Sequence record: OP778610
DNA from: Escherichia phage W70
DNA: 64,000 nucleotides
Strand: one strand, 5' to 3'
Made by a program: the position numbers and the translations under genes. Below, one piece after another: positions 6,696 through 43,545 of the stretch (its first letter is position 1; each line of letters starts with the position of its first letter). The notes below the pieces were generated by a model, which was not told the origin of the DNA, searched no databases, and was given only the letters and a program-made list of their open reading frames with translations.

Positions 6696-7078
6696 TCGTA
6701 ATTGATCTCCACTTTAACAATTTTACCAGTTTTATCATTGAATACTTCAATGTCATAGTATTCAACAACGCCTTCATCATCAAAAGAACTTTTTTGTTTG
6801 CAAGGTGATACCCAAAAACCGTGGATTACTGCCTCCTCCAGTCCGTCGGTATGTGATACAACACTCAATGTTGGGTAAGGGACCATAATAGGTTTTACCT
6901 CACCACAACCACACGTACAGCAAAATACTTCATCTTCTTCCAGTTGGTACAGTCGCTTTTCTGGAACAAAGGTCAGATGCGCCAAAGGATATTTAGAGAC
7001 GATGGCATTAATATAAGGTTTTCCTGCCAAGCTGTCAATAAATTCATTAAACTCTTTTCTATTTTTTGATAAGCTCAT
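6692..7078 (-). CDS. hypothetical Cys-cluster protein
   Basis: CCTCGCGE cysteine cluster. Confidence 0.45.
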   Translation of the reverse strand: MSLSKNRKEFNEFIDSLAGKPYINAIVSKYPLAHLTFVPEKRLYQLEEDEVFCCTCGCGEVKPIMVPYPTLSVVSHTDGLEEAVIHGFWVSPCKQKSSFDDEGVVEYYDIEVFNDKTGKIVKVEINYE

Positions 7079-7311
7079 CGAGTACCTCCAAAAATATTTA
7101 AAGCTTTAGAATAATCAATGTGACCTGGAACAGTGTGGGCCTCTTGTACAAGGCATTGCCGACAAATACGTGACACAACTGTTGTCTTGATCTCTTCTGT
7201 ATCGTAGAAGCGAGACATTACCTTTGTAACTTGATTGCATTGAGTAATAACAAAATCGTGTTTACAACTTGGTTTGTTTTCTTCAGTTTCTTTCTTTTTA
7301 AAAGGCCACAT
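7075..7311 (-). CDS. hypothetical Cys-rich protein
   Basis: CKHDF...CNQ...CRQC pattern. Confidence 0.4.
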   Translation of the reverse strand: MWPFKKKETEENKPSCKHDFVITQCNQVTKVMSRFYDTEEIKTTVVSRICRQCLVQEAHTVPGHIDYSKALNIFGGTR

Positions 7312-7319
7312 GGTGACTC

Positions 7320-7502
7320 CTATTCTTCAACTATTTCGTATTCATCTTTCAAGAGCATAAATTGATAGCCCTTGCCCTTATTCGCAATAATAGTACCAGA
7401 CGCGCTCTCTTTTGTCACGAAAAGAATTGAATCTTTTTGGACACCGTAATACTTAAGTTGCTCAAGCAGTTTGGTCTTTGATTCTAAGATTTTGACTTTC
7501 AT
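7320..7502 (-). CDS. hypothetical protein
   Basis: 60-aa ORF. Confidence 0.35.
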   Translation of the reverse strand: MKVKILESKTKLLEQLKYYGVQKDSILFVTKESASGTIIANKGKGYQFMLLKDEYEIVEE

Positions 7503-8154: not shown

Positions 8155-8524
8155 GTGTATTCTCCATATCGCGAATTCGATCTTCTACCCAACCACGACG
8201 ATAAATGTTGAGGTAAGATTTACCTTTTGAACCATGATGGGCATATTCGTCAAAATCAAAATCAAAAGGCGTCTCGGTGTTAAGACCCGCATCAAAGAAT
8301 TGATTCTTCATTTCGAATTGCACTTTCATGTCTGGATCATTTTTACCTAAAAATGAAGACAAATTAAAACAAAGGCCAGCACCTCGGTAAAAAGCCCCAT
8401 CTTTTGGTGCACCGATATCTAACCATTTTTTATATTCTCGGTAGAAATTCAGAAGTTGCGGACTGCTTTTCATTTTGTTCTCCTCATTTGTTTTGATAGG
8501 ACTACTATAACATAGTCCTATCAA
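8147..8524 (-). CDS. hypothetical protein, paralog of 17859-18155
   Basis: Shares WLD-GAP...GLC...FxDAGL...PFD pattern with 17859-18155. Confidence 0.5.
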   Translation of the reverse strand: MIGLCYSSPIKTNEENKMKSSPQLLNFYREYKKWLDIGAPKDGAFYRGAGLCFNLSSFLGKNDPDMKVQFEMKNQFFDAGLNTETPFDFDFDEYAHHGSKGKSYLNIYRRGWVEDRIRDMENTHE

Positions 8525-9848: not shown

Positions 9849-10148
9849 CTAGTGGCACGCCCCCCAGTTCATCCCTGTGAGGTATTCACCTGTTATGTGG
9901 ACAGGAGATTTCATCATTCGTGCTGCTTGCTCTACACAACGAACAACCATCTCTCCAACTGGACAATACATGATCGTGTAGATTCCATTCTCATCAGGAT
10001 CACACTTAAACTTCCCTTCTTTCACACAATGACCATCCAAGATCATTTTCTTAGCCAAGCAAGCTTCTACAAATTTCTTCGCGTCAGCTTCGTTGTCAAA
10101 GGTCCAGGTCTTCTTGAACTTGTGCGGTACTTCAAGCTGGTATTCATC
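9849..10148 (-). CDS. DNA polymerase (family A), exon 2
   Basis: DEYQLEV completes motif C when joined to exon 1 (YYH|DE); C-terminus NWGACH like Pol I/T7 ...H terminus. Confidence 0.65.
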   Translation of the reverse strand, partial: DEYQLEVPHKFKKTWTFDNEADAKKFVEACLAKKMILDGHCVKEGKFKCDPDENGIYTIMYCPVGEMVVRCVEQAARMMKSPVHITGEYLTGMNWGACH

Positions 10149-10920
10149 CAAAAGTTTAACGAGGTCGTTACTCTCGCCCACATCATTACATGTTGCCATA
10201 CGTTTTCACATATGGATCGGACTATATCACCATCCTTTTCAGGATGCTCCCCATTTCGACGGCACTTGCTCGCCTACGCCTCTCGGCTAGTCTCTGAACG
10301 TTAGGACCATGTGTAGTCACAAGAGATGTGTGTCCAGTTTTTACGGATTTTTATGGACCTTACCACGTTGTAAGGATAACCCATATCCCGAATCTGTGCA
10401 CTTCCATAACCTTGCCCCAGGAAGTTGCAAATCTCTCTAACCTCTTCTTCGGTAACTATACTTCTGGCGTTATCAACCCCTGTTGCTGAACGACATTTAT
10501 CAGCAAAGGTTTTCTTGATATTTCCACCACGAGTTGTCCATTGGAGGTTTGAATAGTGGTTATTCCTTTTGTCAGGCCACTTATGATCAACCTCCGGCAA
10601 ACCTTCAGGGTTTGGTACAAAACACTCTGCCACCAAAACGTGAACAGCCTTTGTAGTCGTCCTTTTGTTGAGATACAGACTTACAATAAGATACCCACGT
10701 CCATTATCAACTGCCGCCATTGGTTTCCCTCGACGACCTATAATGGTCCCGTCTTCATAAACCTTGTAACCGAAATAATCTTTATATTCCACATGATCCT
10801 CTTCGCTGCTGATTAACATAGTCTCATACTAACTCACACTTGAATTAATATCAACCTTAGTCTTCCAGCAATTAAAGGAGTTTTCGATGTGAGTTACCTC
10901 ACAAAGCCACAATGTTACTT
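10149..10920 (-). mobile_element. group I intron in DNA polymerase gene, HNH-ORF-containing
   Basis: In-frame stop right after exon 1; core elements GACTAGCCGAGAGGCGTAG and GATATAGTCC on minus strand; ends in G before exon 2. Confidence 0.65.
10301..10819 (-). CDS. HNH homing endonuclease (intron-encoded)
   Basis: LPEVDHKWPDKRNNHYSNLQWTT HNH-type motif; lies inside intron. Confidence 0.7.
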   Translation of the reverse strand: MLISSEEDHVEYKDYFGYKVYEDGTIIGRRGKPMAAVDNGRGYLIVSLYLNKRTTTKAVHVLVAECFVPNPEGLPEVDHKWPDKRNNHYSNLQWTTRGGNIKKTFADKCRSATGVDNARSIVTEEEVREICNFLGQGYGSAQIRDMGYPYNVVRSIKIRKNWTHISCDYTWS

Positions 10921-13251
10921 ATGGTAATAGATAATACGTCTAACGCCTTCATCATACCAACCTTTCTTAACCAACTGCCAGTGCAGGAGGATACCCACCA
11001 AGTCAAACAGTGCAGCACCACCATTCTGCTGATAAGCATTAAGCAATGAGTGTTTGGAACGAGTGTAGATCTTACGTCCATCAAGACCGTAGATGAATCG
11101 CTTACCGTTAGCTTCCCAAAACTTCTCTAGTGCTTCTTTACGACCTTTCAAGCCGATGTTGCTATCCCAGAATGCGTCGATTACTGCCTGGGCCTTCTCA
11201 AGAGTGATCCCCAGCATTGATGCAATCTTCGCTGCCTGTGCCCCGTACATAATTCCGTATGTCACACCTTTACCTTCACCACGAGAAACCTTCTTCCCTG
11301 CCGCTTTGGTATACGCTTCTGCGTTTCGGGAGTGAGCATCTCCAGATTCCATGATACGAAGATAAGCACCGCCATCGAAATCATAAGCGCCCCATGCTGC
11401 GATCATACCTTCTAGGTTTGAACCGTCGATACCTACCTGATATTTACCCTCAGAGGCTCTGAATAGTTCACGCATCTCTTTACCGAGAAGAACTTTCTCA
11501 TCCGGCTTAGGTACGTTTGCTACGATCGTATGCTTACGACGACCTGTGTTAGTTATTCCACTATAACGGGCCGGAAGTTTACCGTCAACTCGTAGACGTG
11601 GATGGTTAAGCCATCCGGTATCAACCTTCTCTTCTTTCAGCGGGTCAAGAACAGATCGTCGGTTACGTAAAGACAGCCATTTAACAATCTGTTTAGCCAT
11701 TTCACCATCTACTCGCTCAAGGTTAGGGCAAAGACCCTGTTGATCCTTAAGTTGTGGAGATGTAGGTAATGCACGAGCTTTCTTACGGAAAAACTTGAAC
11801 ATCTTTTCTTTATCTGACCACTGCTTAGGTGTGATCGCCAAGCTTTTCAGAATCAGATCACGATACTCCGTCTGATCCAAATCTTCAATGTATTGACGAA
11901 CAATCAGATCAACTTCACTATCGGGACGTTGTTTCTTGAACTGATCTTTAGTTGCATCCTTTGTACGCCAAATTGTTGGGACCCATCCTGCATCACGGAT
12001 CAGGAACTTCTTAACGTCGTCCTGGTTACCAATACGCATCGGAATCATAATGTCCGGCATCTTTTGTTCTTTGATATCCATCAAAGCACGAGCCATATCT
12101 TCCGGCGGCAAAGGAACAAGCCCTTGCTGCTTAACGTTTTGTGCACGGATAAAATCACCCATTTTGGATTCGTCCTCTACACCGTGTTCAACACAATACT
12201 TGATCGCGGCAGCAGTAAGAGATCCGTCAGCCTTAAACGGCTTACTTGGTGCACCTTTAAATTCCAAGGCTTCCCAATTGATATTATAACCTAACTTCTC
12301 TAACCATTTCCAACCTGTACCGGAAAGAGATCCATCACCCTTGAAAGGTTTGGATGGGAATGTCGGTTGTGCTGATTTCGACATCTCTTTCTTCGGCAAC
12401 TTAGGTTCAACCTCTAACTCAATGTCAGTCATCATCTTATCGATACGATCACGAAGCTTGAGTGCTTTTTCTTCATCAAATGAAACACCCTGAATTTCTT
12501 GCTCAATCATCAGGTAGTCAGTCAACATACCTCGACGCAGGGCATTCTTCCAGTTGATCATTTTATACTTCTTCTGATCTTTGTCTGTTTCATCCTTAAA
12601 CATGAAGCGTTTATCATCCGGCATGGATTCACAGGAGATCTCTTTCATCAGAGCATCCCACACCATTTCGTTGATAATTACGTCTTCAATAATACGATCG
12701 CAATACTTCCAAAGTGGAAGGCCACGCCAATCTTCAATCGCCACTTTCTGGTTAGCTACTCGCATACCCCAAGCTTCAAGCCCGTGTGGCCCTACAGGCT
12801 TCATTTTACCTGTGACGGGGTTCTTTACCATCTCAGGACAACCGCGAGGCAGAGGGCGATCTGGATACAATGTACGGGACATTGAAAGTGTATCGAAGAT
12901 GGTTACTTGTTTACCATTGATCGTCCCCATGCAACCAGGGTCTGCAAACATATCGTAAGTTGTTCCTAGCATCTTCTTAAACAACTGGAGGTCATAGCCG
13001 AAGATGTTGTGGATAGCAACTGCTTTAGGCTCGGTAACGAACCATTCGTTTAATTCTTCAAGGGTGCGGATCTTGAAGTTTTTACCTTTAGATTGGATAA
13101 ATTTAACAGCTTGATCGTAACCTTCTCGCTGTGGATCAAGAAAGATGTTCCAGTTATCTTTTTTGTACTCTTTAAACAAGATGCAGTGGATTAGATCAAC
13201 TTCTGTCAACAGACCATTAGCTTCCGCATCTCCAATAAATAAGCCTTTCAT
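10921..13251 (-). CDS. DNA polymerase (family A), exon 1
   Basis: N-terminal FIGDAEANG 3'-5' exo motif; KKVSRGEGKGVTYGIMYGAQAAKIA resembles motif B; ORF stops one codon after ...YYH. Confidence 0.75.
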
Positions 13252-13288
13252 TTTTTCTCCTTCTTTTAAACTCCAACTAGACTAAAAC

Positions 13289-13325
13289 AAAGCCTAGCCG
13301 GAGGTATGACCCTTCGGCTAGGTTA
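13289..13325 (-). terminator. possible intrinsic terminator
   Basis: Stem cctagccg...cggctagg followed by T-rich run on minus strand. Confidence 0.35.
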
Positions 13326-13417
13326 TCAAAAGTGTCGGTATCCTTCATCAACAAAATAAAGTATTACCAAGATGGCAAACACGACACCCAAGAATATTAA
13401 TCCTAGTGAAGTTGGCA

Positions 13418-13693
13418 TCAGTCTTCTATTACCTCAAATTCATCATTAAAAGCTACGATAGTTTCACCGTAGCCCATGTTTAATCGGGCAGTTGTAGGTT
13501 TGCCATTCCTAGATAGATAGTACACCCTCGCTTCGTAAATGTCACCAACTTTTACACCGTAAGCCTGTAGGTCTTTGTTATTGATATCTTTATTTTCAGC
13601 ATTGATTATTCGAACACTGCTGATCTCTGAGTATACAGAATTATCTTTCATCAGTATTTTTCCTCTGGACGGAAAACTCCACGGCAAGCCCAC
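13418..13693 (-). CDS. hypothetical protein
   Basis: 91-aa ORF. Confidence 0.4.
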   Translation of the reverse strand: MGLPWSFPSRGKILMKDNSVYSEISSVRIINAENKDINNKDLQAYGVKVGDIYEARVYYLSRNGKPTTARLNMGYGETIVAFNDEFEVIED

Positions 13694-13941
13694 ATACTTG
13701 CTTCTTTGAGGCGATCTTTAGCCTTAGATAAGCAATCAGATGCAAAAAGCACGGAATCTAGATCCCCTTCGGGAATCGAAGAGTCATTAGCCAGTCGATT
13801 ATATTCCTCAATAATCTCGTCTTCTAATGCTTTTAAAATAAGACCTAAACGAATTTCAGCATCTTTAATGGCATTCACCTTACCGATTTTTTCATCGGTG
13901 TGTGGTTTGTAGCCCTTAATGTCATCAATAGCCATTACCAA
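13651..13941 (-). CDS. hypothetical protein
   Basis: 96-aa ORF. Confidence 0.4.
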   Translation of the reverse strand: MVMAIDDIKGYKPHTDEKIGKVNAIKDAEIRLGLILKALEDEIIEEYNRLANDSSIPEGDLDSVLFASDCLSKAKDRLKEASMWACRGVFRPEEKY

Positions 13942-14423
13942 TCCTCTTCTGTTTGTTCATACTCGGAAGGGGTGATGAAGTAATTCTGCCCCCGCTTGCA
14001 CTGGTTGAAAGTCCCAACATACCAAGTACCGATATCCATGTTGATGAAAGTTTCTTCTTGAACAAAGATCAGATCAGTAAGATTATTGTCTGATCGTTGG
14101 GTCGCTAACAAAATATGCTCAAAATCTGCTAATGTTATGTTGTAACAGAAACCATCTTCGTCCTCCATAACTGCAACAACAGAGCTACGCCCTTGGGTGA
14201 ATTGACGAAACTGTAAACGTAAATGACGATGTTCATGTTCATTCGTCTTCACCTTTTTCCGATTTTCGAAATATTCTTCGGAATAATTTGGATGCTTTAA
14301 TTTCAGCTTTTCGATCTCTTCGGTAGAAAGAGCATCCTTATCCCAACCAGTAAACCATTTACCGTTATCATTAAATACCGCAGGGTATTTACGCTTACTC
14401 AAATCTTTAAACATTTGAATCAT
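13935..14423 (-). CDS. hypothetical protein
   Basis: 162-aa ORF. Confidence 0.5.
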   Translation of the reverse strand: MIQMFKDLSKRKYPAVFNDNGKWFTGWDKDALSTEEIEKLKLKHPNYSEEYFENRKKVKTNEHEHRHLRLQFRQFTQGRSSVVAVMEDEDGFCYNITLADFEHILLATQRSDNNLTDLIFVQEETFINMDIGTWYVGTFNQCKRGQNYFITPSEYEQTEEDW

Positions 14424-14733
14424 CTCCTTCAGCTAGGCTACGAATATACTTGAAAATTTCTTCATGATCATTACCAAATGCAACATATCCCTTTTCAGCA
14501 TCAAGTCCATAATTATGCTCTATTTTCTCTAAAAAGCAATTTCCGTAAGTAATTTTTTCAACCAGGGGATCGGATTCTGAAAAACCCAACCCAAAAGCTT
14601 TCCAGTGCTCACGTTTAAGCTCCACGTATTCCCACGGTTTATCTCCATCGTGGAATAACACAAGGGTGTCTTGATCTTTCTTTTCTACATTGACATGACC
14701 ATAAAATCCACTGGGCGATTTGTTAAATTTCAT
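14407..14733 (-). CDS. hypothetical protein
   Basis: Internal start chosen to limit overlap with upstream gene. Confidence 0.4.
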   Translation of the reverse strand: MKFNKSPSGFYGHVNVEKKDQDTLVLFHDGDKPWEYVELKREHWKAFGLGFSESDPLVEKITYGNCFLEKIEHNYGLDAEKGYVAFGNDHEEIFKYIRSLAEGDDSNV

Positions 14734-15055
14734 AATCTTCTCCGTAAATATCTTTAATTTTTGAACTGAGGTATCCAGGATCGCAGCCATCATACCACAC
14801 TTCTACGAAAACCTTTTGGGAATCTTTGATGATCTTTGCCCCGACTCTTTCAATCCCCTTGAAGAAAGATTGTAAGATGTAATCATCTAACACGTTTACT
14901 CCATAAGCATCGTGGAGGGATTTTTCATCGTGAACATACACAACCATCTTACCATCATACGTAACTTGAATGCAAGGGTCATCTTCCCAAGTAATAGCCG
15001 GAGAATCCGGCTCAAGCTTTGCAATAACACCAATAGTCAATCGGTTGTCACTCAC
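14723..15055 (-). CDS. hypothetical protein
   Basis: 110-aa ORF. Confidence 0.45.
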   Translation of the reverse strand: MSDNRLTIGVIAKLEPDSPAITWEDDPCIQVTYDGKMVVYVHDEKSLHDAYGVNVLDDYILQSFFKGIERVGAKIIKDSQKVFVEVWYDGCDPGYLSSKIKDIYGEDYEI

Positions 15056-16269
15056 TCTTTACCCCCTGCGATGCGTAACATTTGGATAGTTTTCTCCAGT
15101 TCTTTACGAGGTTTGGCAACTAAACGACGTTCGTGTCGCTTCAGGAAGCCTTCTAAGAACTCTAACGGTTTAAAGGATAACACTTCCTGTACTGATTCGT
15201 CAACAGCATACTCTTTCTGGACCATACGATAAACCGGATTTTTTACAGTTACAGGAGTATAACCCTTACTGATCGCCATTTGGGTAACAACACGCTTCTT
15301 GCCATCGGTCCATGAGTCATCGATCGGGAAAGAATCTTTACCGTATTTTTCAGAGAATAACTTAACTGCTGTTTTTGTCAAGTCATCCTGATCTTCTTGT
15401 GTTCGACTTTGACCCCAATAATAACCACCAGAGGTCTTAGCACGACGTTCCGAGAACAAAGCAAGGTCATCGTACTGCTCAAGAGCTAAACGCGCCAGAA
15501 GCTCGATATCGTCGCTTTCTGACAGCAGTCGGTTTGCTTCGTACTTAACTTCAAAAGTATTTGCACTATCACGATCACGGTCAAGGGTGAAAGCTTCTGG
15601 CTTGAAGTCGTAATCGAATTTAAAATTACCTGGAACACGAGTAACGAACAGTCCATTTACAAACAGGTTGCAGTCACCGCCTGTGATAGATCCATCCTCT
15701 TCTTCATTTTGGTATTCGTCCGCAGCATTATACAGTTTAGTATAAGCTTTGCCGCGATCATTCTGAATAACGACTGTACGTTCAGTGGTTGGCGCATAGT
15801 TATTCATAATTTCAGACATAGCACAATGAGGGATGTTTTCAATGATCACAGTTACAGTATTTGAATCACGGCCTGACAAAGCCTTTTCATGGATATCTAC
15901 CGCCAAAATATTCTGTTCGTATACTGTATCATAAACCATATTTGGAATCCAAAGATCATTACCATTTTCGATAACAATGTCTGCACCTTCACGAACAAGC
16001 ACCAGAAGACCTACTTTCAGACCTTCACCAAACTTACCGATCTTGCTGTCATCATCACGTTTGGTTGAAACACCCATCAAAAGGCCGGAAACGGGAACAA
16101 CACCGCCACGAGAGATGATTGTGATCTTACCTTGATTACTATCATCTTTACTAAAATAAATATTGAAATCTTCTGTATCGATAGCATTTTGCATTAGTTC
16201 ACGAGCACCTTGCCACCATGACCAGTGACTGACGTAATTTTCAGTGATGCTCAATTTAATCTGTTTCAT
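15052..16269 (-). CDS. GHKL-family ATPase-like protein
   Basis: N-box-like RELMQNAIDT and G2-box-like GKFGEGLKVG near N-terminus; start overlaps upstream stop. Confidence 0.5.
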   Translation of the reverse strand: MKQIKLSITENYVSHWSWWQGARELMQNAIDTEDFNIYFSKDDSNQGKITIISRGGVVPVSGLLMGVSTKRDDDSKIGKFGEGLKVGLLVLVREGADIVIENGNDLWIPNMVYDTVYEQNILAVDIHEKALSGRDSNTVTVIIENIPHCAMSEIMNNYAPTTERTVVIQNDRGKAYTKLYNAADEYQNEEEDGSITGGDCNLFVNGLFVTRVPGNFKFDYDFKPEAFTLDRDRDSANTFEVKYEANRLLSESDDIELLARLALEQYDDLALFSERRAKTSGGYYWGQSRTQEDQDDLTKTAVKLFSEKYGKDSFPIDDSWTDGKKRVVTQMAISKGYTPVTVKNPVYRMVQKEYAVDESVQEVLSFKPLEFLEGFLKRHERRLVAKPRKELEKTIQMLRIAGGKE

Positions 16270-16281
16270 TTATTTGCCCTC

Positions 16282-16998
16282 TTATTTGTTGTATTGATAA
16301 ATTGCTTCAGCCAAGCCCCGTGGGGTTAATGACCGGATCATCTTAGTTCTTGCTGACTTACCACCCAACTTATTCTGCTGATCTGACCAACCAGGTGCAA
16401 CAGGAACCGGAGAGGTTTTTGGAATTATAAACCCATTCCCTGTCCAAAGTCCAGTCTTTTTAGGATAAGCATCCCGTGGTTTAATGTACTGAGGAAAATA
16501 AGGGTTAACATCATTTACCGGAAGATAACCACCATATTCCCAAGGGTTGAAATATACCGTAGGCTTTCGCCATTGTCCAGCTAAAACACTAACGGGGTTC
16601 TCGATCATGTAAGGACAATCAAAAACAAATTCCGCAAGCCAAGCTGCAATCTTTGCAGTTCTTACCGCCTTGATCTGGAAGAAAGGATCTTTTGCTTTCT
16701 TTGATGCAAAGTGACGCGAACCACTGACAGCCATATCAGTACATGGAGGGTAGGCAAGGATCAGGTCCGGTGATGGCAATCCTAAGTTCTCTACATTCTC
16801 CATCCATTCAATATCGATAAAAGCGTTAACGTAAGTGATGTTGGGATGAATTTCCTTTACACCTTCATAATCCCCGTGATCAGCATCGTCATAGTTGAAG
16901 CAGTAGCATTTGTGCCCTGCTTTTGCCCAAGGAAGAACATCAATACCTGAACCAGAAAAGAGACTCCAGATAATCTTTTTATTCATCGTAGCATCCAA
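16282..16998 (-). CDS. minimal DNA (cytosine-5)-methyltransferase-like protein
   Basis: Motif I LFSGSG; motif IV PPCT-DMAVSG (PC catalytic dyad, Thr in place of Gln); motif VI ENP; only 238 aa. Confidence 0.5.
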   Translation of the reverse strand: MDATMNKKIIWSLFSGSGIDVLPWAKAGHKCYCFNYDDADHGDYEGVKEIHPNITYVNAFIDIEWMENVENLGLPSPDLILAYPPCTDMAVSGSRHFASKKAKDPFFQIKAVRTAKIAAWLAEFVFDCPYMIENPVSVLAGQWRKPTVYFNPWEYGGYLPVNDVNPYFPQYIKPRDAYPKKTGLWTGNGFIIPKTSPVPVAPGWSDQQNKLGGKSARTKMIRSLTPRGLAEAIYQYNK

Positions 16999-17291
16999 AT
17001 AGTGGTTAATTTACAAATACACCAGAAAATCCCGATCAGTGTAGCCAGAGTAATAACACAAGTCAATGCTATAGGTAAGAATATTGTCATAATCACTGCA
17101 AAGACTGAAATACCTACGCTTGCAATAAGATCCGGTACGAAATAGTGAAATGGATCTCTTGCCTTTTTAATGTTGTCCCATGTTATTACTACGGAGCTAA
17201 GGACGAGCCAGAATAAAAAGTACAAAATGCAAGGAAATAAAGTCATGTGTGACTTAACCATATCAAACCACATGTTGTAGAATTCAATCAT
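16983..17291 (-). CDS. small membrane protein
   Basis: Three hydrophobic stretches. Confidence 0.45.
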   Translation of the reverse strand: MIEFYNMWFDMVKSHMTLFPCILYFLFWLVLSSVVITWDNIKKARDPFHYFVPDLIASVGISVFAVIMTIFLPIALTCVITLATLIGIFWCICKLTTIWMLR

Positions 17292-17611
17292 TCAGTTTTC
17301 CTCGGTACAGATGCAATAACAGCCTTTTCGACGAGACATACAATAAATCTCCCAATCCCTGCCAAAAGGAGAGCAAAGACTGTAAAAGGCAACCCATAAA
17401 TAAGAACCAAAATCATCAATCCAAAACAAGCGGAAAACAGGACTTCTGTGCCTAGCCACATTTTGGAGTAATTGATATAATTATGTCGCAATTTTAAAAA
17501 CAGTCCAGCAATAGAGCCTACAGAAAATATACCAATCAACCAAGGTGCAGTTACAAATGAACGACTGAACCCTTCCCAAAAAACAAAAACATTAATGATT
17601 GCTTCGATCAT
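17288..17611 (-). CDS. small membrane protein
   Basis: Hydrophobic throughout. Confidence 0.45.
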   Translation of the reverse strand: MIEAIINVFVFWEGFSRSFVTAPWLIGIFSVGSIAGLFLKLRHNYINYSKMWLGTEVLFSACFGLMILVLIYGLPFTVFALLLAGIGRFIVCLVEKAVIASVPRKTE

Positions 17612-17862
17612 AAACCATACCTCGCTTCATATAAGAATTCATCAAGATCTTTACTGTCGTCGGAACCTTCTACTGTCAATGGCATCAGGTGTTCTTTGAA
17701 ATAATAGCAAAGACTGCCGGAACTCGTTTCTACTAAACAGGTTGTTTTACAAACCATTTTAACCTTTACCGATAGTCCCGCATCTTCGTGACTGTGGACC
17801 ATTGCAAGACAACCATCATAAAGCTTATCTTCGTAAGGTAAGCAAGGATCTGGATTTTTCAT
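17608..17862 (-). CDS. hypothetical protein
   Basis: 84-aa ORF. Confidence 0.4.
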   Translation of the reverse strand: MKNPDPCLPYEDKLYDGCLAMVHSHEDAGLSVKVKMVCKTTCLVETSSGSLCYYFKEHLMPLTVEGSDDSKDLDEFLYEARYGL

Positions 17863-18155
17863 CGTGAACTTTCCTCCTCTGCATGTTTACGTACCCAAGC
17901 TACACGGGCCGGATTGAGGTGTTTCTTAGTGTCTTTATGATATGTATACCGACCTTTATCAAAAGGGAACTCGCAGCACAGTCCAGCGTCGGTAAACTGT
18001 TGTTGCATCTCTTCAGACAAATCAAAATTATAGTCCGGCCAATGGTCCAGTGAGTAACATAACCCCTTACGACGATTAAACGGATCGCGGTCAGGTGCGC
18101 CTTCGTCAAGCCACGCGGCATAGGCTTTATAGAATGCTTTAAGTTGCTCGCTCAT
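17859..18155 (-). CDS. hypothetical protein, paralog of 8147-8524
   Basis: AWLDEGAP...GLCYSL...FTDAGL...FPFD. Confidence 0.5.
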   Translation of the reverse strand: MSEQLKAFYKAYAAWLDEGAPDRDPFNRRKGLCYSLDHWPDYNFDLSEEMQQQFTDAGLCCEFPFDKGRYTYHKDTKKHLNPARVAWVRKHAEEESSR

Positions 18156-18551
18156 TTATTTCTCCTCTGCATATGCAATCTTAGTCATGTAGTCAATACA
18201 ATCATATTGAACATTGTGGCTATTAAAAACAGCCTTGCCTTTGTAAATAACTTCCCAATAATTAATACTTTCAATTTCGGAAAGGTAGGCAACACACTCC
18301 CCCTTCGGATTAATAAGTTCAACCTGCTCAGTTTCTCGTAATTTCCAACCAGTAGGCAACTGAACAACTTGTTCCTTAAAAATCACAATATTGTCACGGT
18401 AACCCGTTGCCCTTTTAAATGCTCGGAGTAATTCTTTGTATTCACGATATTTCACATAAAGGCCGTCCTCTGATTTTTCCATACGGGCTTCATTGATATT
18501 GCAATTACCATCCATATCTCCAACCAGGTCATAACGATATACAGGTTTCAT
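18156..18551 (-). CDS. hypothetical protein
   Basis: 131-aa ORF. Confidence 0.5.
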   Translation of the reverse strand: MKPVYRYDLVGDMDGNCNINEARMEKSEDGLYVKYREYKELLRAFKRATGYRDNIVIFKEQVVQLPTGWKLRETEQVELINPKGECVAYLSEIESINYWEVIYKGKAVFNSHNVQYDCIDYMTKIAYAEEK

Positions 18552-18760
18552 TTTTTAACTTTCTCCTTTTTCTCAGGTTTTACATCGCAAACTTTTTGTT
18601 GATAACTGATCGGTGTTACATAACGCCACGTCTTTTTAAGGTTCTCAACGAGGATTCTCATTTGTTCCTCATCAGCACCCCAACCTGCGGTATGTGCTAT
18701 TTCATCAACACTCATTTGGCATTTAACGTACCATCTTGTAACTGTCTTTGATTGTATCAT
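18548..18760 (-). CDS. hypothetical protein
   Basis: 70-aa ORF. Confidence 0.4.
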   Translation of the reverse strand: MIQSKTVTRWYVKCQMSVDEIAHTAGWGADEEQMRILVENLKKTWRYVTPISYQQKVCDVKPEKKEKVKK

Positions 18761-18786
18761 TTGTGTTTCCTTGAGGTCAAGAAATT

Positions 18787-19083
18787 TTATTTAATACCAA
18801 GTTCTTTTGCACTGTAAATATCGTTACCTTCATAACCTTTGTAGTAGATCAGAATATCTTTGACAATCTCTCCTGTCGGTCCGCTCCGGCGGGTACGTGG
18901 TCGTGGTGAGTTTACCAAATAAACTTCACCACGAGTATTTATTTTTGTTGTACGGTGACCTTCGACGAAGGTCAATGTTGTATATGCAGGAACCTTGACA
19001 AGAACCTCTACCTGATCGCCAGCAGTATTCTGTTGTTCATTTGCCATATCGTCTTTAACAACAGTGGTCATAAGTTTGGTCAT
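18787..19083 (-). CDS. hypothetical protein
   Basis: 98-aa ORF. Confidence 0.45.
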   Translation of the reverse strand: MTKLMTTVVKDDMANEQQNTAGDQVEVLVKVPAYTTLTFVEGHRTTKINTRGEVYLVNSPRPRTRRSGPTGEIVKDILIYYKGYEGNDIYSAKELGIK

Positions 19084-19085
19084 TT

Positions 19086-19352
19086 TTATTCTCCTTTGTT
19101 CAGTGTGGATACGAATTCGATATAAGATTCTGCATTTCGTTTATGATAAATCTGAGGATAGCTGTCGGTTACTTTGCCGTATTTGATGTATCGCTCAAGC
19201 ATACCGACAACACCACCACCAATGGAATGCACAACAACACCTTCTTCACCAACAAAGGTAACCACTTCTACGAATGGACTGTTATCATAAGAACGATTTA
19301 CAATCAGATCGCCGACTTCAAATTCGATTTTATCATTTTGTGAGTAGTGCAT
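19086..19352 (-). CDS. hypothetical protein
   Basis: 88-aa ORF. Confidence 0.45.
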   Translation of the reverse strand: MHYSQNDKIEFEVGDLIVNRSYDNSPFVEVVTFVGEEGVVVHSIGGGVVGMLERYIKYGKVTDSYPQIYHKRNAESYIEFVSTLNKGE

Positions 19353-19414
19353 TTGTTTCTCCTTTCTGTTTGGTATGGGGGAAGTATAGGGGAGTTTAGG
19401 AGGGGTGTCAATAG

Positions 19415-19442
19415 AAAAACCGCCCGAAGGCGGTTTATTTTG
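19415..19442 (-). terminator. intrinsic terminator
   Basis: Stem aaccgcc-ttcg-ggcggtt then T-run on minus strand; same hairpin recurs at 53504. Confidence 0.65.
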
Positions 19443-19449
19443 AAAAATA

Positions 19450-19971
19450 TCAGAAAGGTGCTTCGTCGTCGAAATCTACATCTTCAACTTCCGGTACATC
19501 AGGAATGTCACCTGCGGATTCAACGATACTCTGTTGTTCCCACGTAGGTTCCTCTGAAGGTTGGTCCATTTCTTCCATAACCTTCTTGATCTCTTCCTCT
19601 TGCTCACGCAGGAAGTTATCATCCGGCTCAGGAATATCTTCCTCTTTAATATCTGAACGAGTGAGATCACTGTTTTGTTCAGACAGAGGTTGAATCTCTG
19701 CTGCTTTAGGCTTAAAGTCTGGAGAACGATGATCATCTTCTGGATGAGCGGCATACCACTCACGAAGAGTTTCATAAGGACTCTCTAAGAAGCCCTCTGG
19801 CGGTTCCAGATAATCACCCGTATCAATGTCATAGAACACAGGGAATTTACCAGCACGACCGTGTTTACGGTCATCCAGAATAACAAAGTAAGAAGTGTTA
19901 CGTTGTTTCATCGGGAGTTCTGGATCTTTGTTACGTTCAATTCCCCACATATAGTAAGTATTCTTTATGTC
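19450..19971 (-). CDS. primase-helicase (T7 gp4-like), exon 3 with acidic C-terminal tail
   Basis: GIERNKDPE...VILDDRKHGRAGKFPVFYDIDTGDYLEP parallels T7 gp4 C-terminal region; ends DVDFDDEAPF. Confidence 0.6.
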   Translation of the reverse strand, partial: DIKNTYYMWGIERNKDPELPMKQRNTSYFVILDDRKHGRAGKFPVFYDIDTGDYLEPPEGFLESPYETLREWYAAHPEDDHRSPDFKPKAAEIQPLSEQNSDLTRSDIKEEDIPEPDDNFLREQEEEIKKVMEEMDQPSEEPTWEQQSIVESAGDIPDVPEVEDVDFDDEAPF

Positions 19972-20808
19972 CAGGCTACTCGCTAGGTAGCCTCGGTGTG
20001 CTAAGACACCCGCCCATACTTTCATACAGGAACAGACTATATCATCACCTTTCGGTGCTCTCCACTTCGGAACCGCTTGGTCCCTACGCCTTTCGGCTAG
20101 TCGTTGAAGATTTTGCATATTCAGGATACATGGTCCAAGTATACAGATTGGCAATTTCTTTCCAATCCCTTTTGCTTCGGATGTTTAGAACAACCGCCCT
20201 TTTAACTTGAATGCCACTACTTTCGGCTATTCTCTTTGCAGTCCATCCCTCTGAAAGTAACTGGCATATCTTATGCACGTCGTTTTCAGAAAGTCCGGTA
20301 CTGTAATGATCTTGCCCTCTAATTGGTAATTTGTTTTCTATCGAGTGTCGAAGATTTTCCTCTTCTGTTACCCACTCAAGGTTATCTTTATGATTGTTCA
20401 ACTTATTACCGTCTTTATGATTTACCTCTGGTAAATTTAAAGGGTTTGGTATATAAGCCTTCGCGACCATCCTGTGAACATACTCAGGCTTCCGCTTACC
20501 ATTTAAGATAACATTAACAACAAAATACCCTGTACCCTTACTTAATGAATTTTTAAGGAATCTTCCTGAAAATTCACTAAAAACTTGTCCATCTTCAGTG
20601 ATAAAGTATGGACTGTTTTCTTCTATTCTTACCATAAGTCCCCTCTTTCATGGGACCAAGATCTAGAATATGCAACTTTCCTGCTGATTACCCAATCCTG
20701 TACCTTTTTAAACATTCACGCTTGCCTTTGCAGACTACGTTGTAGTGTTACAGGCTCTAAGGGCTTCCCAGCAATTCAAAGAGTTTTAGATGCGCTCTAC
20801 TGCTGTTA
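19972..20808 (-). mobile_element. group I intron in primase-helicase gene, HNH-ORF-containing
   Basis: Stop directly after exon 2; core GACTAGCCGAAAGGCGTAG and GATATAGTCTG; 3' boundary approximate. Confidence 0.6.
20084..20635 (-). CDS. HNH homing endonuclease (intron-encoded)
   Basis: LPEVNHKDGNKLNNHKDNLEWVT HNH-type motif. Confidence 0.7.
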   Translation of the reverse strand: MVRIEENSPYFITEDGQVFSEFSGRFLKNSLSKGTGYFVVNVILNGKRKPEYVHRMVAKAYIPNPLNLPEVNHKDGNKLNNHKDNLEWVTEEENLRHSIENKLPIRGQDHYSTGLSENDVHKICQLLSEGWTAKRIAESSGIQVKRAVVLNIRSKRDWKEIANLYTWTMYPEYAKSSTTSRKA

Positions 20809-21399
20809 ACGCATCATTGCACGGCTACCAGCAAACTGCGCTGACTGGACTTGACCACCAAATTCATGAGGCTTGCCAGATTCAGGCTTATTAAGGTGAC
20901 AGAAGCAATAATAAGTAAAGCCAAGCTCTTTTGCCAGTTTGGAGATCTCATCCGAGAATCGTTCCAGTTCCTGGTTAGCTTCAGAAGCACTCATACCTTG
21001 CACAAGACGAGTGATCGGGTCAATAAAGATATCTTCACAACCTTCTACGATCACTGCGTGACGGATAGCACCTTTCAGTTCATCCCATACTGCACGACCA
21101 TAGTTGTTATAATAGATAACACTATCACCAACTTCATCAGTAGCTTTGATCAGTTCTTCTTGCTTAAAGTATCCACGTTGACCTTCAAAAACTTCATTGC
21201 CCCAAATGTCACGGTAAGTTCCATCTTCTTGAGGAATCATTACCTTTTCGGCATTAACAAAGTCTTTATGATAACGCTTACCTGCGATCTTCTTACAAGT
21301 GATCTCGTTCTCTTCTTCAAACTTAAACACCGCAGCTTTTGACTTTTCAATACCCGTGATGTGTTCAACCATTTGGTTAAGAAGTTCAGACTTGCCCAT
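20809..21399 (-). CDS. primase-helicase, exon 2 (helicase core)
   Basis: Starts MGKS (Walker A remainder); IFIDPITRL Walker B-like; FCHLNK and QFAGSRAMM helicase motifs. Confidence 0.65.
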
Positions 21400-21688
21400 T
21401 TTCACCGTTATGTTCGACAGGGTTCGCTACTCCCTGCCCGTTCTCTTACGAACTGCTACATGTCCCCATGCAGACCAGACTATATCTTCAACCTGTTTCC
21501 AGGTGCTATGCACTTCGGACCGCTTGGCCCTACTCTACTCGATTCAAGAGTCTAGCTCTTGTCTTTCGATAGTCGTTGCTCCTTCCTTTTTCAAGGCTTG
21601 GATCAGGATTACGTGTTCTACGCTTCCCCTGAGTTCACATAGTATTTAGTCGAGGCATCTCTGCCAAGGCTGGCTAGACTTAATGTTT
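21400..21688 (-). mobile_element. group I intron in primase-helicase gene, ORF-less
   Basis: About 290 nt between exon 1 ...IGAG and exon 2 MGKS...; core GCTAGACTC and GAAGATATAGTCTGG; no ORF. Confidence 0.6.
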
Positions 21689-22624
21689 ACCAGCACCGAT
21701 GAAGTAACCTTCACCTGGACGACGACCCAAGGTAAGCTTGGTCATGGTGGGCCAAGGGAACTTCTTGCCGAGTTTAGGGATCTCATGTGCCTTTTCGCGG
21801 AACTGTGAATAAGTCGAGAAACCATCAGGCACATATTCTTTTGGCTTCATTGCAGCCCAAAACAACTGATCAGAAAGACCTTTGTTATACATATCGCAAG
21901 GGTCCATATCTTCTGGAATATCCACGACCTTCATTTGTGGAATTACAGAGTATACCGCTGCAACTGCATCTTTACCTTTCATGATCCCTTTGGCCTTCTC
22001 TGCTTCTGTCGCACGGTCAGCATCGAAAGCTACGATAATCTCTTCAAACTTACTCAGAAGCTTATAGTTATTCTTCTGTGATAAGTTTTGCACGGCATTG
22101 GATGTACCGTTAGAGATAGATACAACTGTGAAGTTTGGTTTACGAGTGGAACCATCCTTCGGTTTGTACTTCTCTGTCAATACCTGCCACAAGATTGCAG
22201 CATCGTATTCACCTTCAGTGATAAAGATCATACGTTTGGAAGACTTGTTTGCACCTTCCAGACCAAACATATCACAGGCTACAGATTGGAAACCGATAGT
22301 TGTAAAGTGCCCTTTCTGTTGCTTAGGGATCGTAAGATCACGCTTTTTAAAACCTACAACCTTACCTTCCAATGTGTACGGAAAATAATGTGCTTCTGGA
22401 GTCATACCGTCTTTAGCTGACAACTTGGTACGAATACCAAATCGTTTAGCTGTCTTTTCGTCGATACCACGCTCAGGGATACTTTTACACGGGTAAGTCA
22501 ATACATCTTCAACTGTTTCTTCCACACGAGACACACCGCCGCCATAATTACGTGCCACCGAAGCTTTAGGGTTTTTATGTCCAAACTTATAACCGCCAAA
22601 CAAACTTTCGCCAATAGTGCTCAT
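21689..22624 (-). CDS. primase-helicase, exon 1 (TOPRIM primase domain)
   Basis: TOPRIM motifs ITEGEYDA and FDADRA; ends GEGYFIGAG (start of Walker A). Confidence 0.7.
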
Positions 22625-43189: not shown

Positions 43190-43485
43190 TGATTAAAGTT
43201 ATTGCACTTACTGCCTTATTGTGTATACCATTTTTGGCGCACGGTACTAAGTTTTACGGTGCTAACTTGATAGATTGTAAAGCTCATATGCTGGACCATG
43301 AAACAGGCAACAAATTTGTTAAGCCTTTCCAGATCAATCCGGCGGTGTTTACTGACGGTGTTTTATATCAGGAAGGTAAAGCCAGTACGCTGATAATCCA
43401 TTACGATCCAGCGACAAAGAAAGGTAGTTTATCAATCCAGGTTGAAGGCGCGGAAGAGTTTTCAGGTAAAATAATCTGCAATTAA
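43186..43485 (+). CDS. secreted or periplasmic protein
   Basis: N-terminal signal-like MIKVIALTALLCIPFLAHG. Confidence 0.5.
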   Translation: MMIKVIALTALLCIPFLAHGTKFYGANLIDCKAHMLDHETGNKFVKPFQINPAVFTDGVLYQEGKASTLIIHYDPATKKGSLSIQVEGAEEFSGKIICN

Positions 43486-43545
43486 TATGTTAAGGCCCGC
43501 CATTGTGCGGGCCTTTCTTTTATGAAAATAATTTTGAAAATGTTG

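Follow-up and report, generated by a model that had tools for sequence, protein, structure and literature searches.

Group I introns bearing HNH endonuclease genes have been published in the polymerase and other genes of Vequintavirinae phages (PMC7344957), and introns also occur in the terminase and nrd genes of relatives in this subfamily (PMC3606486, PMC7344957), those in the terminase of rV5 among them (PMC3606486). The HNH-bearing polymerase introns of the Certrevirus Pectobacterium phage CB7 splice, as seen by reverse transcription PCR (PMC7344957), and in phage WalterGehring (BASEL) the polymerase is annotated as a joined coding sequence (CDS) around a ‘putative homing endonuclease’ (10.1101/2021.03.08.434280). 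Here we analyse a 64,000-nucleotide (nt) stretch of Escherichia phage W70 (sequence record OP778610; hereafter the window), an rV5-like (Vequintavirinae) phage of E. coli, which covers ~64 of the 137 kb of the phage genome. On its minus strand, between positions 10149 and 21688, the window holds three intervening sequences that we read as IA2-type group I introns, one (I1) in the gene for the family A DNA polymerase and two (I3 and I2) in the gene for a T7-gp4-like primase-helicase, each within a catalytic motif; we put the probability of this reading at about 0.9. The three are very probably separate, old, site-specific lineages of one large and widespread phage intron family and not recent copies of one another.

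I1 is already known in all but name, and the split polymerase has already been annotated. The polymerase introns of the Vequintavirinae (Certrevirus CB7, CR9 and PBES02; Seunavirus SSE121; Vequintavirus rV5/FV3/Bas51 WalterGehring) lie at the same junction as I1, YYH|DE, with the same guide sequence and an HNH gene in the P6a loop, and are 73–75% identical to it over 772 nt; they differ in nothing essential, apart from a long P7.1 in the rV5 type, and the polymerase gene of CB7 contains two introns. The T7-like phages PhiI and W31 (I-TslI) have polymerase introns at ‘site 881’ in E. coli Pol I numbering (PMC3428280), which, from an alignment to T7 polymerase together with that description, corresponds to the H|D position of I1. 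The polymerase introns of SPO1, SP82, Bastille and Pf-WMP3 (I-HmuI, I-HmuII, I-BasI and I-PfoP3I) lie at site 674 (PMC3428280). Both groups resemble the W70 introns in being IA2, with P7.1 and P7.2 joined by GUA, in having an HNH gene that starts in P6a and runs into the core, and in occupying a catalytic-motif site of a family A polymerase (PMC3428280), although their host phages differ from W70.

The other two introns occupy the Walker A and H4 sites, and literature searches yielded no account of introns in these positions of a T7-gp4-like primase-helicase. Away from its own site, the I3 core is closest to two introns lacking an open reading frame (ORF), one in the DnaB-like helicase gene of Klebsiella phage Roth32 and one in the polymerase gene of the Pseudomonas Pakpunavirus PaoP5. 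Like I3, that of Roth32 interrupts Walker A coding sequence (GAGTGV|GKT), whereas that of PaoP5 lies in polymerase motif B and not in a helicase; both differ from I3 in codon position and guide sequence. I2 and I3 are new members of a well-known kind of element, and no new kind of element is described here. The textbook IA2 introns of phages are those of T4 td, nrdB and sunY (I-TevI/II/III), which share with the W70 introns the IA2 architecture, an ORF looped out from a peripheral helix, homing with co-conversion, and the occurrence of ORF-less or defective variants. The T4 enzymes differ in being GIY-YIG proteins (I-TevI and I-TevII) or a different HNH type (I-TevIII), and the T4 host genes serve nucleotide metabolism and not the replisome.

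The region from 9.8 to 22.7 kb of the window is 95–98% identical to five E. coli Vequintavirinae phages (A73, A5-4, LTH01, A7_1 and UPEC06) and ~78% identical to Certrevirus phages of Cronobacter, Pectobacterium and Enterobacter; the genes of the intron region are all on the minus strand. We fixed the intron junctions by aligning the window to natural intron-less alleles of the close relatives, in which the polymerase gene is uninterrupted in A7_1 and UPEC06, and a 2046-nt primase-helicase gene is uninterrupted in A73 and LTH01. Polymerase exon 1 (10921..13251, ending RIIYYH) is contiguous in A7_1 and UPEC06 with exon 2 (9849..10148, beginning DEYQLEVP), and I1 (10149..10920; 772 nt) lies between them as a precise insertion relative to sequences L003 and L004. 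Primase-helicase exon 1 (21689..22624, ending GEGYFIGAG) runs on uninterrupted in A73 and LTH01; in the window it is followed by the ORF-less I3 (21406..21688; 283 nt), exon 2 (20809..21405; 199 codons), I2 (19963..20808; 846 nt; absent from all five closest genomes) and exon 3 (19450..19962), the second and third exons being defined by alignment to the intron-less alleles and by the spliced ORF. These outer coordinates fall within a base or two of those given for three minus-strand intervening sequences in an initial annotation of this DNA, made from the sequence alone, and comparison with the intron-less alleles bears out a precise insertion at each of the three sites.

The junction sequences are TATTACCAT|AAGTAAC...CTTTTG|GATGAATAC for I1 (10920 to 10149), GGTGCTGGT|AAACATT...CATAACG|GTGAAAATG for I3 (21688 to 21406) and ATGATGCGT|TAACAGC...CATAAAG|AATACTTAC for I2 (20808 to 19963). 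In all three introns a U precedes the 5′ splice site and the last intron residue is a G (positions 10149, 21406 and 19963 for I1, I3 and I2, respectively). A guide sequence pairs with the 5′ exon in each, placing U(−1) in the U.G pair of P1 (CCAU/GUGG in I1, GCUGGU/GCCAGC in I3 and AUGCGU/GCGCAU in I2), and the guide sequences are kept in orthologues. Joining the exons in silico yields a continuous polymerase ORF of 876 residues and a continuous primase-helicase ORF of 681 residues, the length encoded by the uninterrupted A73 gene.

All three introns are inserted between codons (phase 0), each inside a catalytic motif. I1 splits YYH|DEY, the HDE of polymerase motif C, which aligns with VHDE of T7 DNA polymerase. 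In the primase-helicase, I3 splits the Walker A motif, or P-loop (GAG|VKMGKS, aligning with SGSGMGKS of T7 gp4), while I2 splits helicase motif H4 (SRAMMR|NTYYMWGIERN, aligning with GSGALRQ|LSDTIIALERN of T7 gp4). Homing elements typically insert in the most conserved coding sequence.

Rfam matches all three introns to the group I model RF00028, for which the gathering score is 50 bits. Only I3 (21456–21721; 70.4 bits) is found at this threshold, and E-value mode was needed for I1 (10197–10930; 39.7 bits, E = 2.7e-7) and I2 (20013–20301; 24.7–25.3 bits, E = 0.008–0.026), which score below it because an ORF insertion of roughly 480–540 nt divides the model in both; as the ORF splits the core, this mode also misaligned the 5′ half of I2. 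The Rfam scan gave no further group I match in the 64-kb window. The initial annotation had described the introns as confined to replisome genes, which holds within the window, where only the DNA polymerase and primase-helicase genes are interrupted, and extends no further than this part of the genome.

We modelled P2 to P9.2 for each intron and tested the models on ORF-removed alignments of same-site orthologues against slid controls. The I1 model has 82 pairs, with 93.9% of cells paired and 28 pairs changed on both sides; the corresponding values are 93.5% and 28 for I3 and 96% and 16 for I2, with at most 4 such pairs in the slid controls in every case. Compensatory changes thus support the conserved P3–P9 core, with its P3/P7 pseudoknot, in all three introns. 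P7 covaries in SSE121 (GGCCA with UGGUC). The P9.2 stem of I2 (helix 14) was misaligned by MAFFT, and by eye it covaries as GGCUAC/GUAGCC, AUGAG/CUCAU, GUGAG/CUCAC and GUAAG/CUUAC. An unconstrained minimum free energy fold of I3 recovers the modelled P3–P6a, P7.1, P7.2, P8, P9, P9.1 and P9.2; it folds the P2 region otherwise and misses P7, because RNAfold cannot predict pseudoknots.

Subgroup IA2 is marked by two additional helices, P7.1 and P7.2, which lie between P7 and P3′ and are linked by G-U-A (PMC3428280). Both helices are present at this place in all three introns and all covary, and the introns are accordingly IA2-type group I introns. P7.1-GUA-P7.2 reads GCCGAGAGGC-GUA-GGCGAGCAAGUGCCGUC in I1 and GCCGAAAGGC-GUA-GGGACCAAGCGGUUCC in I2, while I3 has a long two-part P7.1 (UCGA..CAAGAG/CUCUUG..UCGA), a GUAGAGUA linker and then GGGCC-AAGC-GGUCC. 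A GAAA-capped P8, a GNRA-capped P9, P9.1 and P9.2 are common to all three. P5 differs, being long and branched in I2, medium in I1 and four base pairs in I3, and I2 is without P2. In the rV5-type orthologue of I1 from WalterGehring (L039 401–1242), a long P7.1 (GACUAUCGAAAG...CGAGUAGAGUAGG) resembling the one in I3 stands in place of the short GCCGAGAGGC hairpin, which suggests either module exchange between intron lineages or independent expansion.

Two of the introns carry HNH ORFs with a common motif (LPEV-H..NNH..NL.W), as the initial annotation had it, and the third has none. The I2 gene (20084..20635, minus strand; 183 aa) scores 34.5 bits against Pfam HNH_3 (cut-off 24.8) and matches the structure of I-HmuI (1U3E; E = 1.3e-11); its product is identical to ‘HNH homing endonuclease [Escherichia phage W70]’. 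Enzymes of the I-HmuI type nick one strand. The I1 gene (10301..10819, minus strand; 172 aa) scores 23.9 bits against the same cut-off, and its product is homologous to that of I2 along its whole length (32% identity over 160 aa, E = 7e-29). By sequence, both ORFs are predicted to be I-HmuI-like HNH homing endonucleases.

In I1, I2 and the ORF-bearing form of I3 found in relatives, the HNH gene occupies the terminal loop of P6a, closed by a 10-bp stem. That of I1 (AGGAUCAUGU/ACAUGGUCCU) is supported by covariation and holds the AUG and the 3′ part of an upstream purine-rich, Shine–Dalgarno-like sequence, while its 3′ strand consists of the last ORF codons, ending directly before the stop codon. 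In I2 (stem UUGCAUAUUC/GAAUAUGCAA) the last ~17 codons span P6a′, P6′, J6/7, P7 and P7.1, and the stop codon is the UAG of the GUAG linker. The ORF in the A5-4 form of I3 likewise continues through P6′, J6/7, P7 and P7.1 to the UAG of the GUAG linker, and the same layout of an ORF running into the core is known from I-PfoP3I (PMC3428280).

Each of the three sites is occupied in some phages and empty in others. Of the five close relatives, A73, A5-4 and LTH01 have I1, and A7_1 and UPEC06 lack it; the I3 site is occupied in A5-4, A7_1 and UPEC06 but empty in A73 and LTH01; and none of the five has I2. Among ~45 sequenced relatives (at least 79% protein identity) none has I2, and the helicase domain is interrupted only in UPEC06, A5-4 and A7_1, by an ORF-bearing I3. 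I1 differs from the A5-4 and LTH01 copies at one position in 772 nt, compared with up to 26 mismatches per 200-nt bin in its flanks. At the I3 site, the exon flanks show 7–13 mismatches per 100 nt against intron-less alleles and 0–8 against intron-bearing ones. Around the I2 junction there are 3–5 synonymous changes within 21 nt relative to each of the five relatives, and beyond these 21 nt A73, A5-4 and UPEC06 scarcely differ from the window over the next ~300 nt of exon. Synonymous changes near I2 lie at 19942, 19951, 19954 and 19960, and others lie upstream of 10921, the I1 boundary.

With sites occupied or empty among relatives and introns less diverged than their flanking exons, these are mobile (homing) introns. 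Recent movement has been between phages at the same site, and the pattern is the signature expected for homing with short co-conversion tracts. Cleavage of intron-less alleles by the HNH enzymes is indirectly indicated by this presence/absence polymorphism and by the mismatch patterns resembling co-conversion.

From the intron family we infer splicing and endonuclease activity that would proceed as follows. The pre-mRNA would fold as a P1–P9.2 ribozyme and exogenous guanosine would attack after the U of the P1 U.G pair; the freed exon would then attack after the terminal G, and the joined exons would give intact polymerase and primase-helicase mRNAs. In a mixed infection, the I1 and I2 HNH enzymes may nick or cut a related phage's intron-less allele close to where the intron inserts, and recombinational repair would copy the intron and a short exon flank into that allele (homing with co-conversion). 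The ORF-less I3 would be able to splice but not to home by itself.

In the window, P6a of I3 is a GAAA-capped hairpin of four base pairs (CCUU-GAAA-AAGG) without an endonuclease gene, where the A5-4 copy has CCUCUCAACC-[458 nt with a 165-aa HNH gene]-GGUUGAGAGG at the same place; the 165-aa HNH gene is present in this intron in A5-4, A7_1 and UPEC06. Either the ORF-less state is ancestral-like and the HNH gene of these three phages entered P6a later, or the gene was recently deleted, and we regard loss and gain as both plausible, at about even odds. An origin by simple deletion was examined and rejected: no single deletion turns CCUCUCAACC...GGUUGAGAGG into CCUU-GAAA-AAGG, and no flanking direct repeat explains the junction, which favours the ancestral-like state. 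A second phage, L049 (a Logan contig with 97.4% identity over the locus), likewise combines an ORF-less I3 with I2; its I3 hairpin (CCUC-GAAA-GAGG) departs from that of W70 by a compensatory pair, which shows that the short form is being maintained. The ORF-less relatives in Roth32 and PaoP5 likewise have GNRA-capped P6a hairpins. An otherwise different group I intron on an unrelated 26-kb viral contig from IMG/VR (L043, IMGVR_UViG_3300017748_000118, ~8461–8510) shares with I3 a 50-nt P4′-P6-P6a-J6/7 module at 98% identity (AATCCTGATCCAAGCCTTGAAAAAGGAAGGAGCAACGACTAT), which also speaks for the ancestral-like state; the modules P7.1 and P4′-P6-P6a appear to have been exchanged between intron lineages. 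On the side of recent loss, the window's I3 is 100% identical outside P6a to the ORF-bearing A5-4 copy, and ORF-bearing copies are the commoner form (three isolates and four metagenomic contigs). In the Logan contigs L048 and L050, the HNH gene of I3 copies 99% identical to that of A5-4 is truncated, to 126 and 149 aa; decay of the endonuclease gene appears to be under way in some phages and would end in loss.

I3 lies 597 nt upstream of I2. In the sampled set of close relatives, I2 accompanies the two I3 copies that lack an ORF (those of the window and L049), and it is missing beside all seven ORF-bearing copies. The two introns may conceivably be a cooperating pair in which I3 hitch-hikes in the co-conversion tract of I2 (‘collaborative’ homing), its own endonuclease being dispensable, but we consider this rather unlikely.

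The initial annotation had suggested, from core segments described as near-identical in all three introns, that an intron had recently spread within this one genome. The introns are indeed related, all being of the same subgroup architecture, but the sharing is less general than supposed. The 10-mer GATATAGTCY occurs four times in the window (0.23 expected) and is present in all three introns, whereas the 19-mer GACTAGCCGARAGGCGTAG is found in I1 (10274–10292) and I2 (20084–20102) only; exact and two-mismatch searches did not find it in I3, which has GACTATCGAAAG... at that place. The 19-mer comprises the P7 5′ strand, the short P7.1 hairpin, the GUA linker and the first G of P7.2, and the 10-mer is J8/7 with the P7 3′ strand. 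GACUA and GAUAUAGUC are thus the two P7 strands with J8/7, the classical R and S elements, and GCCGARAGGC-GUA-G is the P7.1 hairpin with the GUA linker that defines IA2 (PMC3428280). These strings are family-wide IA2 core elements (PMC3428280; Rfam consensus) and therefore no sign of recent copying.

Beyond such strings of 10–19 nt the introns are not nearly identical. With blastn, I1 and I2 match over 103 nt at 75% and I2 and I3 over 63 nt at 81%, and there is no significant match between I1 and I3. After ORF removal, the co-resident introns are 59–70% identical in the 3′ domain and 38–63% in the 5′ domain, compared with 72–100% between same-site orthologues in other phages. I1 has same-site orthologues in CR9, SSE121 and WalterGehring; it is 73–75% identical over its full length to introns of CR9 and PBES02 (Cronobacter), SSE121 (Salmonella) and several Klebsiella and E. 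coli phages, and the core domains of its orthologues are 85–95% identical. I2 has orthologues at exactly the same codon in the metagenomic phages L030, L031, L033, L035, L036 and L049; in metagenomic phage genomes of 148–149 kb, the core domains are 72–86% and the HNH proteins 70–79% identical to those of I2. These were reached only by way of the HNH protein, in metagenome assemblies; INPHARED (about 50,000 phage genomes), IMG/VR (exact 31-mers) and E. coli genomes yielded no full-length relative, and a protein-seeded search of IMG/VR gave only HNH genes of 34–54% identity. I3 has same-site orthologues in A5-4, A7_1, UPEC06 and L031, and is 72–82% identical to a metagenomic copy. Its 3′ and 5′ domains are 72 and 69% identical to the Roth32 helicase intron, which is thus nearer to it than either co-resident intron; for the 3′ domain the same holds of the PaoP5 polymerase intron (73%; 5′ domain 55%). 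L031 (ENA ERZ27281805 k141_564271), from a 149-kb metagenomic phage, carries both primase-helicase introns, each with an ORF, and a third in the gene that follows (6844–7420), where it interrupts DNA polymerase motif B (..|IMYGAQAAKIA); the 3′ domain of this third intron is I3-like, and its HNH gene is of a different, zinc-finger type. The PaoP5 intron lies in the same polymerase motif (..|YGAQAGK).

That a single intron recently copied itself to two further sites in this genome, by ectopic transposition or reverse splicing, is therefore largely refuted, and we hold it very improbable. The common IA2 architecture (P7.1, P7.2, P9.1, P9.2 and the ORF site in P6a), the 19-mer and homologous HNH genes of I1 and I2, and the similar P9.2 loops (AGUARCGA) would suit such young paralogues; the 38–70% identity among them, the HNH proteins at only 32%, the lack of an I1/I3 match, the kinship of I3 with Klebsiella and Pseudomonas phage introns, and a guide sequence, P2 and P5 layout that each lineage keeps as its own across diverged hosts all favour separate old lineages at fixed sites.

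The initial annotation had also listed a free-standing paralogue of the intron HNH genes. The gene exists (49955..50443, plus strand; 162 aa; HNH_3 48.8 bits), but it is no close paralogue: its similarity to the intron HNH proteins (E = 0.004–0.2) is confined to the HNH motif, and its C-terminal part is AP2-like as judged by eye. It lies within a stretch (49861–50557) that has no counterpart in A73, and its best phage homologue is 57.5% identical (Certrevirus phiTE/CB7). It is a separate mobile gene of a different HNH type, outside the intron system. It comes with a promoter-like TTATAAT and an AAGGAGG ribosome-binding site of its own.

Several points weigh against three functional introns, a reading otherwise carried by the precise junctions, the restored frames, the conserved and covarying fold, the presence/absence polymorphism and the co-conversion signature. 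The covariation alignments hold only 4–5 sequences each, and because we drew the structures on sequences of the window itself, the fraction of cells paired is favoured, though not the counts of compensatory pairs. I1 and I2 lie under the Rfam gathering threshold (39.7 and about 25 against 50 bits), as their ORF insertions explain, and the I1 HNH protein is slightly below the Pfam HNH_3 cut-off (23.9 against 24.8). Splicing and cleavage in W70 are argued from the family to which the introns belong, and not every HNH-bearing insertion in related phages splices (CB7_245 does not; PMC7344957). The opposing view, that the genes are split by free-standing endonuclease genes or by dead relics of introns and that polymerase and primase-helicase are made as separate polypeptides that assemble, can point to mobE in nrdA of Aeromonas phage Aeh1, to GenBank records of relatives that annotate the pieces as separate CDSs and to at least one non-splicing HNH insertion in Certrevirus CB7 (PMC7344957), but is most unlikely given a complete ribozyme core with conserved P1 U.G and terminal G and compensatory change in every helix, breaks inside HDE, Walker A and H4 that would split active sites, an I3 that is precisely bounded though without any ORF, and post-intron exon pieces without in-frame start codons of their own at the junction.

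Three annotations in GenBank records of the relatives touch on these genes. The second polymerase piece (window 9849–10199) is called from an ATG within I1, and in A7_1 (L003 10630–11133) an ORF on the opposite strand is annotated over the I3 HNH gene; both are annotation errors. The A5-4 record (L002 3922–3925) divides polymerase exon 1 between two overlapping CDSs (A54_276 and A54_1), which suggests a frameshift or a sequencing error there. Elsewhere in the window, three stretches between the polymerase and primase-helicase genes (13659–13927, 14415–14722 and 17885–18158) are small-ORF indels without counterpart in some of the five close relatives. A tRNA scan of the window found no tRNA, and an Rfam match to Trp_leader at 43437–43520 (plus strand; 28.2 bits against a gathering score of 41, E = 0.14) is probably due to chance.

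GenBank now splits the polymerase and primase-helicase of this phage group into two or three proteins, some of which begin inside an intron; the exact junctions permit a correct joined annotation and keep phylogenies and pangenome counts free of distortion by split genes and co-converted flanks. The phages form a natural series, in which each of three sites is occupied or empty among genomes 95–98% identical and the endonuclease gene of one and the same intron may be intact, truncated or absent. This series could serve the study of the cycle of gain, decay and loss of homing endonucleases and of competition between co-infecting phages.

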